Shown: positions 1,048-9,637 of the stretch, one piece after another | Numbering within the stretch: position 1 is the stretch's first letter | How the letters are laid out: each line of letters starts with the position of its first letter | DNA from: Myxococcota bacterium | Lineage (GTDB): Bacteria; Myxococcota_A; UBA9160; UBA6930 | Reading direction: 5' to 3' | Length of the DNA stretch: 64,000 bases | Assembly (NCBI GenBank): GCA_965223415.1 | Contig: OZ245002.1 | Location: 4,928,001 to 4,992,000, forward strand | The notes under the pieces: generated by a model | The model's database searches: none | Told to the model about the DNA's origin: nothing | Seen by the model: only the letters and a program-made list of their open reading frames with translations | Program-made: the position numbers and the translations under genes

Positions 1048-1081
1048 TGGCACGCCGGGAGGGATTCGAACCCCCGACCCT
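1048..1081 (-). pseudogene. tRNA-Arg(UCG) 3' fragment, part 1 (variable loop, T arm, acceptor 3' strand, CCA), split by IS110
   Basis: Reverse complement reads AGGGTCGGGGGTTCGAATCCCTCCCGGCGTGCCA, with a TTCGAAT T-loop and CCA end. Confidence 0.85.
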
Positions 1082-1094
1082 TGTATCTACTCCA

Positions 1095-1305
1095 CTCACC
1101 CGGATCTGGTTCAATAGGGTCAGAACGGGTTTCGGGGGAGGGTCGCCGTCCCGACCCAGAGGCATGGTCCTCGTACCTGAGAGAGGCGCCCTCGCCCGAT
1201 CTCGCAAGCTCGAACGGTATCCCGAGGCAGCGGTCTGCCGCTCGTCCTCGCATGCACAAGGAAGAGCACCGAGGTCGGCACCGAGGCTCCCGACGCTCCC
1301 GTTCG
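1095..1305 (+). ncRNA. IS110 bridge RNA (ends approximate)
   Basis: Target loop: CCCGACCC (1150-1157) and ACCTGAG (1175-1181). Donor loop: ACGGTATC (1214-1221) and ACAAG (1256-1260). Each pair flanks an internal hairpin. Closing stem GAACGGG (1123-1129) / CCCGTTC (1298-1304). Confidence 0.85.
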
Positions 1306-1320
1306 AGGAGGAAGAAGGGG

Positions 1321-2496
1321 ATGCGCTTCGTTGGGATCGACATCGCCTCGGAAACGCACGTCGTCGCGATGGTGGGAGAAGACGGGGGCGTGCTGCTGAA
1401 GCCGGTCTCGTTCCGGGAGGAGGCGGCTGGCTACGCACTGCTGTGGGAGAAGCTGGGAGGCCCCGAGGACACGCTCGTAACGCTCGAGGCAACGGGGCAC
1501 TACTGGAAGAACCTGTTCGCGGCGCTTGCGGCGAGGGGTTTTGCCGTGGCGTTGATCAACCCGCTGCGCAGTCGCCGGTTCGCACAAGAAGACTTGGAGC
1601 GGACGAAGACCGACGCAATCGATGCGCTCGGCCTGGCTCGCTTCGGAGCACAGAAGCGTCCGAGGGTGACTCGCCTTCCGGACGCGGCGACAGAAGAGCT
1701 TCGTGAGCTCGTCCGGCTCCGCGATCGTCTGGTTCAGGACTTCGGGGACTGCACCCGGCGGCTCCACCGCATGGTCGATCTGGGCTTCCCAGAGCTCAAA
1801 CGGTACGTGAAGCACCTCGATAGCCAGCTGTCGACGGGGCTGCTGCGGGAGTACCCCACGGCAAGAGCCTTCCAGGAAGCCTCTGTGGGGCGCGTGGCAA
1901 AGCTTCGCTACGACGGTCGTCATCGTGTAGGCGATGCGCTCGCGAAGCAGCTCGTCGAGGCTGCGCAGAACTCGGTGGGCGCCCATCATGGCCCGGCCTA
2001 CCAGGTGCAGGTGCGTTACCTGTGCGAAGACATGGACGTCTTGCGCAAGAGACTCGGCGACATCGACCGCGACATCGCGGATCAGCTATCCGCGCACGAG
2101 GTCGGAAGCTTGCTGACGACGATCGATGGGATCGGGCCGACGACGGCAGCACGGCTCATCGCGGAGCTCGGTGACCCGGCCGACTTCGCCACGGCCGCAG
2201 CCCTCGCCGCCTACGTGGGCGTCGTTCCAGGCCTAAAGCAGTCGGGCAAGCGCCAAGGCAAACGCGGGAACCTCTCGCCAATCGGTCACGCGCGGCTACG
2301 TCGCGCACTGTGGATGCCGACGTTGGTCGCCGTTCGGAAGAACCCCTGGGTGCGGGCCCACTACGAGCGGCTGCGCGACAACGGCAAGCCCGCAAAGGTC
2401 GCGCTGATCGCCTCGACGAGGAAGCTGCTCATCGCGGTTCACGTCGTGGCGAGGACCCGCAAGCCCTTCGTTCCACAGCTAGAGACCAACCCATGA
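1321..2496 (+). CDS. IS110 family transposase / bridge recombinase
   Basis: MRFVGIDIAS, TLEATGHYW and KTDAIDA (DEDD RuvC-like domain), IDGIGPTTAA, KQSG catalytic Ser, purine-rich RBS upstream of ATG 1321. Confidence 0.96.
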   Translation: MRFVGIDIASETHVVAMVGEDGGVLLKPVSFREEAAGYALLWEKLGGPEDTLVTLEATGHYWKNLFAALAARGFAVALINPLRSRRFAQEDLERTKTDAIDALGLARFGAQKRPRVTRLPDAATEELRELVRLRDRLVQDFGDCTRRLHRMVDLGFPELKRYVKHLDSQLSTGLLREYPTARAFQEASVGRVAKLRYDGRHRVGDALAKQLVEAAQNSVGAHHGPAYQVQVRYLCEDMDVLRKRLGDIDRDIADQLSAHEVGSLLTTIDGIGPTTAARLIAELGDPADFATAAALAAYVGVVPGLKQSGKRQGKRGNLSPIGHARLRRALWMPTLVAVRKNPWVRAHYERLRDNGKPAKVALIASTRKLLIAVHVVARTRKPFVPQLETNP

Positions 2497-2541
2497 ACCG
2501 AGAAAACCGGGCCCAGCCCCTTGCTGAAGATCACGGTATCT

Positions 2542-2556
2542 CAGGTTCGAAGCCTG
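2542..2556 (-). pseudogene. tRNA-Arg(UCG) 3' fragment, part 2 (anticodon stem-loop)
   Basis: Reverse complement is CAGG-CTTCGAA-CCTG (anticodon TCG). It joins part 1 seamlessly when the IS110 is removed. No D arm or 5' acceptor strand follows. Confidence 0.8.
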
Positions 2557-2597
2557 GGGCTAAATCGAGACGGAGCAGGTAGTTGGCCGGCTGCGAT

Positions 2598-3686: not shown

Positions 3687-4448
3687 CTACCGCGCCGGGG
3701 CCTCCTTCGGCAAGGCGGTGGTCTTCTTGGTGCGCCAGCTGCGGGGTCCGCACTTGAGCAGGTGGCCGTGGTGGAGGAGGCGGTCGAGCATGGCGGTGAC
3801 GGCTGCCGTGTCGCCGAGGAGCCGGCCCCAGTCGTCGACGGGTCGGTTCGAGGTGACGAGGGTGCTGGTGCGCTCGTAGCGGCGCATGATCAGCTCGAGG
3901 AGGTCCTCGGCGGCCGTGGTGGGGAGCTTGCGCATGCCGAGGTCGTCGAGGATGAGCAGCGGCACGCTCGCGATCTCGGCCAGGTACTCCTTGCGGGTGC
4001 CGTCGAGGGTCGCATCAGCGAGTTCCTCGAGGAGGACGTGGACCTCGCGGTAGGCGACGCGATGGCCCTGGTGGATGACGGCGAGGCCGATCGCCTGGGC
4101 GAGATGGCTCTTGCCCGTGCCCGGCGGGCCGAGGAAGACAGCGTCCTCGGCTTGCTCGAGGAAGCGGCCCGTGGCGAGCTCGAAGACCAGGGCGCGATCG
4201 ATCTTCGTATTGAAGCGGAAGTCGAAGCCGTTGAGGGTCCGGTTGGCGTCGCGGAAGCGGGCCTGCTTGATGCGCCGGGCCAGCAGTCGGTCCTGCCGGC
4301 GCTCGAGCTCGTCCTGGACGAGCGCCGAGAGCAGGTCGATGGCCGCCCACTCGCCCTTCTGGGCTTCGAGGAGCCGCATCTCCAGATGCTCGGCCATGCC
4401 CGAGAGCCGGAGCTTGCGCAGTGCGGGATCGAGTTCAGTCAGATTCAC
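3687..4448 (-). CDS. istB: IS21 helper ATPase IstB
   Basis: LRKLRLSGM, Walker A GPPGTGKS, Walker B LILDDLG, TSNRP, LDRLLHH, SWR. Confidence 0.95.
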   Translation of the reverse strand: MNLTELDPALRKLRLSGMAEHLEMRLLEAQKGEWAAIDLLSALVQDELERRQDRLLARRIKQARFRDANRTLNGFDFRFNTKIDRALVFELATGRFLEQAEDAVFLGPPGTGKSHLAQAIGLAVIHQGHRVAYREVHVLLEELADATLDGTRKEYLAEIASVPLLILDDLGMRKLPTTAAEDLLELIMRRYERTSTLVTSNRPVDDWGRLLGDTAAVTAMLDRLLHHGHLLKCGPRSWRTKKTTALPKEAPAR

Positions 4449-6024
4449 GAGAGGTCTCCTCGGTGCGGCGATCGATGAGATCGCGGTAGTGGGTGAGCTG
4501 GCGGATGAGCGGGTCCACCTGCTTGAGCGAGAGCGGCAGCTCGGGCTGACGCTCCAGGTAGCGCTTGACGAACGCGTAGGTGGGCAGCTCGAGGGCCAGG
4601 GCGGTGGCGCAGGCATCGTCGACGCGAGGGATGCCGTGGCGCTTGCACAGGGAGAGCACGCCCAGGATGCGACGCACCCCGGGCTCGCCGTCCAGGCGAT
4701 GGATCGCCTCACACACCTCGCCCACGTGGACGCCGGCGCGCCGGGCCCGCGCGAGCAGCTGGAGGGTCGTGGCCGGCGTCCGCTTCGGGCGGTCCTCCTC
4801 CCGCATCCTGCGGCGCCCCCGCCTCTGGCGGACGTGCTCGCGCAGCAGCTCCCCCGTCTGCAGATCGAGCATCCGCACCCGCAGCCCGTCCCATTGGACG
4901 GCCACCCGCCGCCCCAGCCAGCCCGGCGGCGCGTGGTAGTAGGCCCCCTCCACCTCGATGGCCCCGTCGAGGTGCACCGTGCGCTCGCCGTGCTGGTAGT
5001 AGCGGAAGGGCTCGATGGGAAGCCCGAGCAGGTGCGGCTTCTCCTCTTCGTACATCGCCGCCACCTGGCGCTTGGTCGTGCCGTGGATGCGGGTGTCGGC
5101 CCATCGGCGCTCCCAGCGGTCGAGGTAGGCCTGGGCCTGCTCGAGCGACTCGAAGCGCATCCCGCGGACCTTCTGCTGCGCGTGGCGCACCCCGGACTCG
5201 ACCTTCCCCTTGCGATCGGGGTGGCGCACCCGGCACGGAAGCGCCGTCACGCCGTAGTGGGCGAGCACATCGCGGTAGAGGGGGTTGAGCGCGGGGTCGT
5301 AGACGTCGGGCTTGAGAACGCCCTCCTTGAGGTTGTCGAGGACGACGGTGCGCGGTGCACCGCCCAGCCGGCGGAAGGCCTTCTCGTGCAGCTCCGACCA
5401 GACCTGGCTGCTCGACTTCCACACGAGCAGCCGAACGCACTTGCGGCTGTAGCCCAGGGTGAAGACGAACAGCCTCGTGCGCCGGTACTTCCCCGACCCG
5501 GGATGCCGCACCATCGGCCCGTCGCCGTAGTCGACCTGGCCCTCTTCTCCCGGTGCCGTCTCGATCACCGGGTGCGCCTCGCGCGGCGCCGCGGCTCGCT
5601 GCTTCGCCACGAAGCGCTTCACACTCGCATAGCTGAAGGCGAAGCCGTGGTCATCGACTAGGTCCTGCCAGATCGCCATCGCCGTCCGGCCCTGGCGCAC
5701 GCCCGCCTCGATCCACTCGCGGTAGGGCTCGCAGGCGCTGGCCTGGGGGCTCCGGCCCGGCATCGGCGGCCAGGCCGGATCGGTGGACGCCTCTTTGGCC
5801 GCTTTTGCCGGGGCCTTCGAGTCGGTGGACGCCTCTATGGCCGGGTTTGGGGCCCCGTGCCCCCAGCGACCAGGAGATCGCACCGCGATCCCCGCGGCCC
5901 GGAGGTAACGGCTCGCCGTCTCCCGGCGCACGCCCGTCGCCTCCTCGATCCGCCGAAGCGACCAGCCGAGGCGGCCAAGTGCCAGAATCTGCTCGCGTTT
6001 CTCGTTGCCCAGAAGGTTCGCCAT
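4435..6024 (-). CDS. istA: IS21 transposase IstA
   Basis: N-terminal HTH (WSLRRIEEATGVRRETASRY), DDE motifs QVDYG, VLDNLK and KGKVE, RIHGTT. Confidence 0.95.
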   Translation of the reverse strand: MANLLGNEKREQILALGRLGWSLRRIEEATGVRRETASRYLRAAGIAVRSPGRWGHGAPNPAIEASTDSKAPAKAAKEASTDPAWPPMPGRSPQASACEPYREWIEAGVRQGRTAMAIWQDLVDDHGFAFSYASVKRFVAKQRAAAPREAHPVIETAPGEEGQVDYGDGPMVRHPGSGKYRRTRLFVFTLGYSRKCVRLLVWKSSSQVWSELHEKAFRRLGGAPRTVVLDNLKEGVLKPDVYDPALNPLYRDVLAHYGVTALPCRVRHPDRKGKVESGVRHAQQKVRGMRFESLEQAQAYLDRWERRWADTRIHGTTKRQVAAMYEEEKPHLLGLPIEPFRYYQHGERTVHLDGAIEVEGAYYHAPPGWLGRRVAVQWDGLRVRMLDLQTGELLREHVRQRRGRRRMREEDRPKRTPATTLQLLARARRAGVHVGEVCEAIHRLDGEPGVRRILGVLSLCKRHGIPRVDDACATALALELPTYAFVKRYLERQPELPLSLKQVDPLIRQLTHYRDLIDRRTEETSRESD

Positions 6025-6225
6025 GGCGGCGGGGGATCGCAGGTCCCTCGCCGTCGTCAACGTCCTGGGCGTCAGCCCCTATGGCCGCTTTTCAGACGTC
6101 CTTCTATGGCCGGTTTTGGGTGTCCACCGAGGGAGAGAGTCGAGGCGGGCGACGATCCCTTCGCGGTCGTCGAGGTCGAGGACGGGAGGCTCGGGCTGGG
6201 ACATGGCTCAGGAGTTCGCGGTGCG

Positions 6226-7579: not shown

Positions 7580-8239
7580 CTACGTCGAGCGGCTCGCATT
7601 CGCAGGAGGCGGGTAGCTCGCGCCGCCGGCGCTTCGATGCGTGCTAAGGAACTTCAGCGCACGCTCAAGCGTTCCGAAGCAAGGTAGCGCCGCACCACGG
7701 ACAGTGTTGAAGTCGATCATCCTCGTCATCGGTAGCTGGTCCAGGGTGGGCTTGTACGAACGACCGGCGGGAAAGTGTCGTGAGAGCCATCCCTTCGCGC
7801 CGCGGATCGCCTGAGGGTCATCGGGTGGGAGAGCGTCTTCGACGAGCCCTGGGCGCTCTTGACCGGACGAGCCAACAAGAGGGCGGCCTGCCATCTCTGC
7901 GACACATGGCAGGAAGAGCACCTCGTACTCGCGGTGGAGGAGGACAACTGCGACCGGAAAGGAGAGCCCGAGGCCGGCTGTCCATGACGCTACGAGAGGG
8001 CCGATCTCTGCCGGGCACCCGTCGTCTTCGTCGTGGAGAATCAGCAGCGCGTCCGCGTTTTTCTTCGTCGCTACGACTCGACACCCCCGCTCGATGCTCT
8101 CCTTCAGGGTGATCTTGGACCAACGCATCGGGTTGGACCATGGCATGTAGGGAAGGCCGAGATCAGCCCACAAGCGGCTGAGTAGGTTGCCGACTGCCTC
8201 GACCTCACCGCGTCCTTCAACTAGCACGTAGCCGGGCAT
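7580..8239 (-). CDS. DUF4276-family (TOPRIM-like) protein
   Basis: N-terminal VLVEGRGE, ILHDEDD (DxD), REYEVLFL, GAKGWLS..YKPTLDQ, directly downstream of an ABC/AAA ATPase. Confidence 0.8.
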   Translation of the reverse strand: MPGYVLVEGRGEVEAVGNLLSRLWADLGLPYMPWSNPMRWSKITLKESIERGCRVVATKKNADALLILHDEDDGCPAEIGPLVASWTAGLGLSFPVAVVLLHREYEVLFLPCVAEMAGRPLVGSSGQERPGLVEDALPPDDPQAIRGAKGWLSRHFPAGRSYKPTLDQLPMTRMIDFNTVRGAALPCFGTLERALKFLSTHRSAGGASYPPPANASRST

Positions 8240-8256
8240 GGGTCTTCTTGCGCCGT

Positions 8257-9390
8257 TCAGTCCTGCGGAAAGCCCAGTTCTTGCTGGAAGCCTTCGACCC
8301 GAAGAACTTCGCCGAGGGTCATCAGCCCCGCGGTGACTGCCTGTCGCTGTGACTCCTGCATTGGGGCGATCGTGGTCTCACTTCCGCGGCGAGCAACGAC
8401 TCGAACGTGGTCGGCATCGAAGCGGTCGAGGAGGTCTGGGCTGTGCGTAGTCACGACAATCTGGCTGTAGTTGGATGCCTCAGCGATGTAGTCATAGATC
8501 AACGGGAGGGCACCTGGATGGACGGTGAGTTCCGGCTCCTCGATGCCGATAAGCGCGGGGCGTGGCTCCTGCTTCAGCGCAGTGATGATTCCTGCGACGC
8601 GGAGCGTCCCGTCGGATTCCTGCGCAGCGTCTAGCCACTTCAGCTTCTTCTTGAGGCCGGCACGGTGGTGGTGTTTGAATGTGACAGTGAGATACCCACC
8701 CGCCTGCTGGACTTTGATGTCCTCCACGTCGCCAGCGAGCTTGTTGAGTGCCTCGACTAGGTCGGGCTTCCAGTCACCCTGTTTCATGTCTTTGAGAATC
8801 GACACCCAGTTCGAGCCGTGCTGGTCCATCGGACGCGTCGCATCGTAGACGTGTGGCGTCCGAAGGGTGTCGGGGAAGATCGAGTAGACCGCGATGCTCC
8901 TGAGAACACGGGCGAGCGGTGCGAAACGTGTGTCCCCGGCGACGAGAGGGAGCACGAGACTCATCGGGTCAACTTCAGGGCGCAGATCGCTAGGCATATC
9001 TCGCCATTCCTGCTCAACGCGATGAATCCGGTGGGACCCACTCTCCCCGGTTACCGAGGCGACCTCGGACTTGACGCGATAGTCCTCGGTTCGGTCGCCC
9101 CCCAACGTGAACTGGTAGATGCCCGAGAACGAGGTGTTCTTGATCGTCAGCTGCACATTGAGGTCGAAGGGGGCACCAGAGCTGAACCGTCGGACCCTTC
9201 CGATGCCGCCGCGGCGGCTGATGGCTCCCTCAAGGCCGATCTGCACGCACTCGGAGACGAAACGGAGGAGGTCAACCGCGTTGCTCTTTCCAGAGCCATT
9301 GGGTCCAACGAGCGCCGTCAGGTTGTCCAGCTTCAGCCGAACGTCTCGCCCGAGGCTTCGGAAGTTGGATGCGCGGAGTTCCGTGATCAC
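8257..9390 (-). CDS. AAA_21 / ABC-type ATPase
   Basis: NFRSL, Walker A GPNGSGKS, signature-like ESDGTLR, Walker B IGIEEPE, H-loop TTHSP. Confidence 0.92.
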   Translation of the reverse strand: MITELRASNFRSLGRDVRLKLDNLTALVGPNGSGKSNAVDLLRFVSECVQIGLEGAISRRGGIGRVRRFSSGAPFDLNVQLTIKNTSFSGIYQFTLGGDRTEDYRVKSEVASVTGESGSHRIHRVEQEWRDMPSDLRPEVDPMSLVLPLVAGDTRFAPLARVLRSIAVYSIFPDTLRTPHVYDATRPMDQHGSNWVSILKDMKQGDWKPDLVEALNKLAGDVEDIKVQQAGGYLTVTFKHHHRAGLKKKLKWLDAAQESDGTLRVAGIITALKQEPRPALIGIEEPELTVHPGALPLIYDYIAEASNYSQIVVTTHSPDLLDRFDADHVRVVARRGSETTIAPMQESQRQAVTAGLMTLGEVLRVEGFQQELGFPQD

Positions 9391-9637
9391 CTGGTTCGGT
9401 CCAGAAGCGGCGCCCCACAATAGCCGGATTCCCCGGGGGACGCTCAAGCGGCCCACGGCAGCCGCAGTCGCGTCCCGAAGCGGTCCCCGCTACCACGTCC
9501 GCTCCCCGGGGGCCAGGGCTCCCGGTCATGGGGGCACCGCAGCCGCGCGGCCCTCTCCTTGGCTTTCCCGCGACCGAGAATCGTCTCAACCCGGCTCGTG
9601 CGGGCTGCCGATAAGGGGGCGAGGAGGTGGCGCGACC

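Follow-up and report, generated by a model that had tools for sequence, protein, structure and literature searches.

The window, by which we mean the whole stretch of 64,000 nucleotides analyzed here, opens close to an insertion sequence of the IS110 family, which raises the question of what sequence this element is programmed to enter and what it may gain there. A sequence-only reading had proposed an RNA-guided recombinase aimed at a tRNA-Arg(UCG) sequence and able to reach both tRNA genes and the tRNA-derived att sites of genomic islands. The explanation that we favor, and consider probable, is that of an IS621-type IS110 programmed for the antisense strand of positions 38-51 of tRNA-Arg(UCG) in its U27-A43 form, living in att sites left by tRNA-Arg-integrating elements.

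The element and its predicted bridge RNA

The element is an intact IS621-type IS110 of 1,462 bp (window 1080-2541), with a CT dinucleotide at either end; the coordinates given for it earlier were all correct when re-checked on the sequence. From the left CT core (1080-1081), whose T1081 corresponds, on the opposite strand, to the A allele of tRNA position 43, it runs on the forward strand through a non-coding left end of 239 nt (1082-1320), in which the right donor arm comes first and is followed by the predicted bridge RNA, and through the gene for a recombinase of 391 aa (1321-2496). The right end, by contrast, measures only 43 nt (2497-2539), with a -35-like hexamer at 2521-2526 and the left donor arm at 2533-2539, and leads to the right CT core (2540-2541). 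The recombinase, recognized by Pfam and PDB matches and by its motifs, contains PF01548 (E 3e-36) and PF02371 (E 3e-28), both above cut-off, and its best PDB matches are ISCro4 and IS621. By motif match, D7, E56, G59, D98, D101, and S308 align with D11, E60, G63, D102, D105, and S241 of IS621, and the catalytic D-E-D-D residues and serine (D7, E56, D98, D101, and S308) are intact. These motifs are complete in 28 of the 30 best protein matches, P0017 being without one and P0027 partial. Since rebuilt sites equal the empty paralogues in length, there is no target duplication, and CT is present at both ends in 5/5 copies. The element is a member of the IS110 (IS621-like) group, all six features that could be settled being present. 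Placement in the IS1111 group was rejected because the right end is just 43 nt, not long, and the guides lie in the left end.

The protein cluster of the recombinase has 28 listed members at 84-100% identity (26 full-length and two partial), the next proteins being at most 75% identical. The 5.83-Mb single-contig genome (G000) holds five copies of the element that are 100% identical, and on sequence grounds the element is probably an active, recently multiplied IS110 of the IS621-like group. The same genome also carries, in six copies (G000:C1:1178640, 2066482, 2534137, 2778508, 3943803, and 4166731), a second IS110-family element with 39% identity over the C-terminal domain.

The left end contains four guides, in the order and orientation proposed earlier. 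The left target guide (LTG, 1150-1157) equals target positions 1-8 and the right target guide (RTG, 1175-1181) is the reverse complement of positions 8-14, while the left donor guide (LDG, 1214-1221) equals donor positions 1-8 and the right donor guide (RDG, 1256-1260) is the reverse complement of positions 8-12. When the 239-nt left end was base-shuffled 200,000 times, the four guide words arose at frequencies of 0.014, 0.015, 0.0024, and 0.16, the product of which puts their joint chance at ~8e-8, guide order not counted. The LTG base opposite position 9 is A, and the LTG therefore does not read the core T. As stated earlier, the donor lies one base from that of IS621, the latter being printed in the accessible text of bioRxiv 10.64898/2026.08.31.748434.

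Homologs, for which we took the best 80 of 135 relatives (54-71% identity) from a scan of genome contigs, have the scaffold in common and vary in their guides. A consensus fold of 49 sequences, namely the window and 48 of 66 extracted homolog ends, forms two internal loops with the guides unpaired except for one lone pair. The target-binding loop (1138-1193, forward strand), which is also backed by pair counts and flank covariation, consists of a closing stem (1138-1147/1185-1193), the LTG, a hairpin (1159-1162/1169-1172), the RTG, and handshake bases at 1182-1183. The donor-binding loop (1196-1278, same strand) comprises the LDG, an inner hairpin, the RDG, and handshake bases at 1261-1262. 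The longer closing stem first suggested for the target loop (1132-1147/1185-1199) is indeed complementary, but the consensus retains only its inner part, and positions 1196-1204 close the donor loop instead. Compensatory changes are seen in 17 of the 38 consensus pairs, a count matched by none of 500 shuffles, and in slid controls the paired fraction falls to 40-51%. The expectation that the guides would lie in loops and not in stems holds in this consensus, but in a single-sequence fold the LTG pairs with the scaffold (mean unpaired probability 0.26), so the open loops rest on the alignment and not on single-sequence energy. The open two-loop form costs 10.2 kcal/mol here versus a median of 11.2 in 48 homologs, and since the homologs pay a similar energy the LTG is probably opened by protein binding. 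No Rfam family scores above the gathering threshold in the left end, where one match is at chance level. The two-loop structure and the covariation described below hold across homologs, which upholds the proposed IS621-type bridge-RNA architecture.

We compared guides with flanks in 58 (LTG) and 57 (RTG) non-redundant elements from 81 loci, window included. The homologs are kin and not independent, which makes all the shuffle P values of this section overstatements. Agreement between the LTG and its own left flank is 5.14 of 8 positions versus 3.66 in shuffled pairs (n = 58), that of the variable RTG bases is 2.74 of 3 versus 1.12 (n = 57), and pairing of the first donor-loop handshake base with target position 7 is seen in 83% versus 53%, with 0/5,000 shuffles as high in each case, whereas the second handshake base reaches 57% versus 40%, with 1/5,000 as high. 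The LDG, for its part, tracks three donor variants among the homologs. The LTG match in the window, at 8/8, is among the best in the 58 relatives, and the RTG is naturally 7 nt long. The RTG bases that read positions 8-9 are identical in 73/73 homolog guides. As a separate observation, 71 of 73 relatives (L010-L089) keep the same four RTG bases and their targets thus carry a fixed 4-mer, which reads as a TGA stop in the opposite direction; a REP-like repeat is the insertion site of several betaproteobacterial members of this set.

That the guide matches are incidental, the site being chosen by protein or DNA structure and not by RNA, is extremely improbable in our judgment. Many homologs do match their left flank poorly (3-4/8), and the bridge RNA is predicted from sequence; yet this explanation has to face the finding that, across homologs, the two target guides, the donor guide, and the handshake base all covary with their partners, the compensatory pairs (17/38, with 0/500 shuffles as high), and the mechanism established for IS621 in the accessible text of PMC11208160. 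At the right end, 56 of the 59 listed homologs (counted by eye) share the spacing between the core and the TTG of the -35-like hexamer, and the -10 formed at the circle junction is weak (3/6 match to consensus). No circle joint is listed in the contigs of four assembled sequencing runs, where rare forms are invisible.

The target and its occupancy in the host genome

The programmed target equals standard positions 38-51 of tRNA-Arg(UCG) (linear nt 39-52), as first proposed, but the site in the window is an att-type fragment and not a tRNA gene. The guides match the flanks of the rebuilt empty site, in keeping with an on-target insertion. An intact tRNA at this site was rejected, ARAGORN finding 0 genes in the rebuilt site. 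The likeness to tRNA runs on the reverse strand from the anticodon arm to CCA only (window 2557 down to 1048), after which comes a non-tRNA arm. The 3' part of the tRNA copy (1048-1079, reverse strand) comprises the variable loop, T arm, acceptor strand, and CCA, with the left target at 1073-1079, and window 1048-1080 is identical at 33/33 positions to the 3' end of the intact tRNA-Arg(UCG) gene. On the other side of the element, the anticodon arm (2542-2557, reverse strand) holds the right target (2542-2546), the anticodon loop, and the 5' stem strand, where tRNA likeness stops. The att arm that follows (2558-2650) is 75-80% related to the arms of unoccupied att fragments at genome positions 4924958 and 5416938. 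The site therefore has what defines an att site of this kind, a tRNA 3' part from the anticodon arm onward joined to a non-tRNA arm. The insertion separates tRNA positions 42 and 43, 4 bp outside the anticodon loop, and is antisense to the tRNA. GC content is 64-66% in the first 10 kb of the window (71% in one 2-kb bin) versus ~72% beyond, which is in line with an island edge. An IS21-family istA/istB pair (3687-6060, reverse strand) lies ~1.1 kb to the right of the IS110, and an AAA_21 ATPase and DUF4276 gene pair, a defence-like module (7580-9456, reverse strand), lies at the low-GC island edge.

All five genomic copies are inserted at the same base of tRNA-Arg(UCG) fragments, the 14-mer being perfect in four and having one mismatch (position 4) in the remaining one. 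This bears out the proposed access to tRNA-derived att sites, and no copy in this genome sits at an unrelated target. The proposed access to the tRNA gene, however, is not supported in this host, in which the single full tRNA-Arg(UCG) gene (1217012-1217088) has C at core position 9 and is unoccupied; two more ARAGORN calls, 70 nt each, are without the 5' half. Core position 9, which is tRNA base 43, is T at both junctions of the five occupied sites and C in 13/13 unoccupied tRNA-derived sites (the intact gene and 12 fragments). Six sites, the intact gene and five others, differ from the programmed 14-mer at position 9 alone, and all are empty. No unoccupied perfect 14-mer is left in the 5.83-Mb genome, and two empty T9 sites have one right-arm mismatch each and no tRNA likeness. 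Among near-matching sites, the split of occupied/empty is 5/0 versus 0/9 (Fisher P 0.0005). The first copy (G000:C1:2539250-2540760) is in a mirror-image att site: the anticodon loop is flanked on either side by variable-loop/T-stem sequence in inverted order, an arrangement such as recombination between two oppositely oriented att sites through the nearly palindromic loop would leave.

Base 43 belongs to a fully compensatory pair. Among the intact genes of 47 relatives whose loci were fetched, 29 are C27-G43 and 18 are U27-A43 (T27-A43 in DNA); the guide reads the A43 form, and the host and three congeners have G43. Did the five sites carry T9 before the element arrived? In homologs, the left junction has T9 in 66/66 with position 8 varying (TT in three, GT in three), while the right junction stays CT in 65/66; in each of the six parsed elements (of 58) with a non-C left junction, that junction matches the guide of the element itself. 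The left junction therefore reports the bases of the target, and T9 was most likely present at the site before insertion. The alternative is core overwriting, in which the element entered ordinary G43 att sites and left its donor T at both junctions, by biased repair of a 1-2 nt heteroduplex or by excision and re-insertion, the gene being spared by lethality only. We regard this as rather unlikely, since both junctions of all five copies must resolve to T, six otherwise perfect G43 sites are empty, and homologs with a non-C position 8 keep the target base on the left and the donor base on the right. Several observations nevertheless speak for it: each occupied site has unoccupied G43 arm paralogues in the same genome, the accessible text of PMC11208158 leaves open the repair of mismatched bases, and the A43 share of fragments is 5/14 in this genome versus 3/22 in G43 hosts overall (binomial P 0.023, 13 sites), although it is not clearly above that in congeners (4/15).

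Empty A43 fragments do occur. They make up 4 of the 15 fragments in congeners G001-G005, occur in congeners in which no element copy was detected, and include members of the same arm families (L319 and L134), which again argues against core overwriting; they are also found in both of the viral contigs (2/2) that contain this sequence and in X2 and X4 run contigs, where other organisms may be the source. The assembled-run contigs contain no pre-insertion allele of the five loci, and T9 before insertion is thus what we infer. Overall, a pre-existing A43 stands well ahead of core overwriting, if not beyond doubt. According to the accessible text of PMC11208158, T9 in the IS621 structures is almost invariant and contacted by G63, and the top strand is cut after it; the equivalent of G63, G59, is conserved in the recombinase described here.

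A probable owner of the att sites is found at the intact gene. A tyrosine integrase adjoins tRNA-Arg(UCG) there and a full 3' repeat lies 40 kb off, the island (1217012-1256830) thus having a cognate integrase and a matching second border. The reading frame of the integrase runs through the tRNA/att sequence, which places att within the 3' end of int, past the catalytic motifs. For this integrase (G000:C1:1217003-1218256, L347), as for L311 in G162, integration swaps the C-terminal tail, and the A43/G43 difference alters one tail residue (Leu in G162, Pro in G000). The window's own att module has no PF00589 or PF07508 match, and an integrase may be used there in trans. Other att fragments form stacks with shared arms at 4.91-4.93 and 5.38-5.45 Mb, and no integrase match was found between 4.75 and 5.48 Mb, the region in which att fragments cluster. 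Pieces of tRNA-Asp 3' sequence interleave with att fragments at 4.91-4.92 Mb. Upstream of the window lie a 3' fragment of another tRNA-Arg (G000:C1:4908082-4908126) and four tRNA-Asp 3' fragments (4913191-4923746). Elsewhere, repeats of the tRNA-Arg(UCG) 3' end ~90 bp apart are found downstream of the gene in two relatives (G009:C107:62725-72927 and G018:C163:917-2288). A 25-nt repeat resembling a tRNA end was discarded, as it lies inside another multi-copy element.

The aim of the element in its relatives

We searched 225 genomes of the class with the DNA of the element only, the target not being used, and found four genomes besides G000 (G003, G144, G162, and G030). The close relatives in G003, G144, and G162 are all at tRNA-Arg(UCG) sequence (3/3): those in G003 and G144 have the same LTG and a left junction in tRNA-Arg 3' sequence, and that in G162 has its right junction in an att fragment. 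The G030 relative (69%) has a different guide and target. Intact A43 tRNA genes are present in the G144 and G162 hosts, and G144 retains an empty, perfectly matching A43 fragment (L317), which shows that matching sites are not always filled. A metagenome junction scan, in which loci were selected for target by the junction itself, gave three element loci among 80 listed; its pattern varied position 8 and not 9, which made CC left junctions invisible. Two of these loci are same-guide elements (85-91% protein identity), and in the third an att fragment contains both junctions of a mini-element that has undergone internal deletion. This mini-element (L182:618-1002, ~385 bp) has lost most of the bridge RNA and gene but has both ends intact, and small genes lie on either side of its tRNA-Arg att fragment. 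Close relatives whose flanks run on into tRNA-Arg sequence are also present in contigs from two other studies; for X2 and X4, the contig of the element has ~5-10 times the depth of its flanks and reaches into the shared target bases. Three of the junction-bearing loci map to different sub-branches of the 84-100% protein cluster, so that the whole 28-member cluster probably shares the guide. Junction patterns with both core bases free, run on 401 genomes (a sample that does not include G003, G144, and G162), gave CT junctions in G000 only, and the seven other matches have no IS110 nearby. Among viral contigs, eight homologs at 53-61% have other guides, and no junction was found.

The aim was not seen in the wider family. 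Across the 60 homolog loci (of 80) given to ARAGORN, a single tRNA was called, a tRNA-Met lying apart from the junction, and the window alone, among 47 rebuilt empty sites (46 homologs and the window), matched the tRNAs of G000 well, the homolog sites giving one weak 26-nt match and relaxed ARAGORN calls being noise; tRNA targeting as a family trait was therefore rejected. Likewise, the idea that sparing of the host gene is an evolved trait is weakened, since the clade is also found in A43 hosts and the RTG bases for positions 8-9 are invariant (73/73). With two of three close relatives in A43 hosts, sparing looks like a by-product and not a tuned trait, and the A43 genes of G144 and G162 make the clade independent of the mismatch.

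The presence of the clade in G144 and G162 also suits an explanation in which it was the tRNA-Arg(UCG) gene itself, a conserved landmark, that the guide evolved to match in A43 hosts, att fragments being where the survivors show and the link to mobile elements one of shared sequence only. The 14-mer lies wholly within tRNA sequence, no att-arm base being read, and sequence match alone does not separate this explanation from the one that we favor. However, insertion between 42 and 43 splits the gene and the ends of the element supply no replacement half, no junction is in an intact gene where this can be judged (the five G000 copies, L182, and G162), and for a guide to persist across 82-93% DNA identity its targets must tolerate insertion. 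We consider it quite unlikely.

A proposed mechanism and its place among known systems

If the element lives in att sites, as we think probable, its cycle may be pictured by analogy with IS621. Circularization at the cores would join a weak promoter that drives the bridge RNA. The donor loop would bind the circle junction and the target loop the 14-mer, as the matches and the covariation in homologs suggest. Top strands would be cut after core T9 and exchanged, as in the IS621 structure, and the element would land antisense to the tRNA. C9 sites would be refractory because T9, as in IS621, would be read both by an RTG base and by the protein. This may be why, in this G43 host, the element has filled every A43 att site and passed over the essential tRNA gene and the att sites with G43. 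In A43 hosts, the tRNA gene itself would be a perfect target, presumably kept clear by lethality. The gain for the element would be a multi-copy, mostly dispensable site on mobile DNA, and a ride between hosts. Bridge RNA expression, circle formation, and effects on island excision and integration are what we infer from this picture.

For IS621 and ISCro4/IS622, we relied on the accessible text of Durrant 2024 (PMC11208160), Hiraizumi 2024 (PMC11208158), and Perry 2025 (bioRxiv 10.1101/2025.05.14.653916). The element resembles both in its DEDD and serine recombinase, CT cores, long left end, target and donor loops, and handshake bases. In contrast to IS621, its recombinase has 391 aa versus 326 aa, its natural RTG is already 7 nt, and its target is a tRNA-Arg-derived att sequence and not REP; its protein cluster (28 listed, 84-100% identity) is separate from IS621/ISCro4. 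IS110-family members aimed at the sites of other elements are known, the targets being attC, Tn21 ends, and REP (accessible text of PMC11187229). The IS1111-attC group (ISKpn4 and ISPst6) and IS4321/IS5075 are similar in that they occupy the ends of other mobile elements or the sites at which these recombine, but belong to the IS1111 group, with the RNA downstream of the gene and sub-terminal repeats, and target attC or Tn21 inverted repeats (Siddiquee 2024, PMC11187229, accessible text), whereas here a bridge RNA in the left end is aimed at a tRNA-derived att sequence common to an essential host gene. IS1202-family elements that target dif/pdif are likewise insertion sequences aimed at tyrosine-recombinase sites (same source). 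Their transposase, however, is of a different family from this IS110. To our knowledge, they are not known to be RNA-guided.

Myxococcus phage Mx8 is a precedent for att inside int. The archaeal SSV type also has its integrase att site inside int (accessible text of PMC5861418), and the tRNA-Arg integrase of G000 (and that of G162) is like both in reading through att/tRNA with its C-terminal tail swapped. This likeness concerns the integrase that probably owns the att sites and not the insertion sequence. The machinery is thus known and the mechanism itself is not new, but the target class is apparently unreported: in the literature searched, with ISfinder and most subscription papers outside its scope, we found no report of an IS110 element that targets tRNA genes or att sites derived from them.

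We also put forward, tentatively and as a doubtful extension, that guides against tRNA-derived att sites may arise repeatedly in bridge-RNA elements, which would thereby parasitize, ride, or lock islands. An invariant core T placed on a compensatory pair (U27-A43 versus C27-G43) would then give one-base discrimination of incoming att sites from the host gene, the flip of the pair may be a host escape, and insertion in an attP inside int would cut the C-terminal tail of the integrase. No copy of the element was found inside an int gene.

The element adds a target class to natural bridge-RNA programming, namely sequence that island docking sites have in common with an essential host gene. It also offers a natural test of the core-T rule in one genome, where five filled T sites stand against six empty, otherwise identical C sites, and its natural 7-nt RTG and 8/8 LTG match may interest tool builders. 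Finally, it points to a testable conflict between mobile elements, since with an insertion sequence in attR the tRNA restored by excision would be a broken one, and a copy in attP would disrupt integration.
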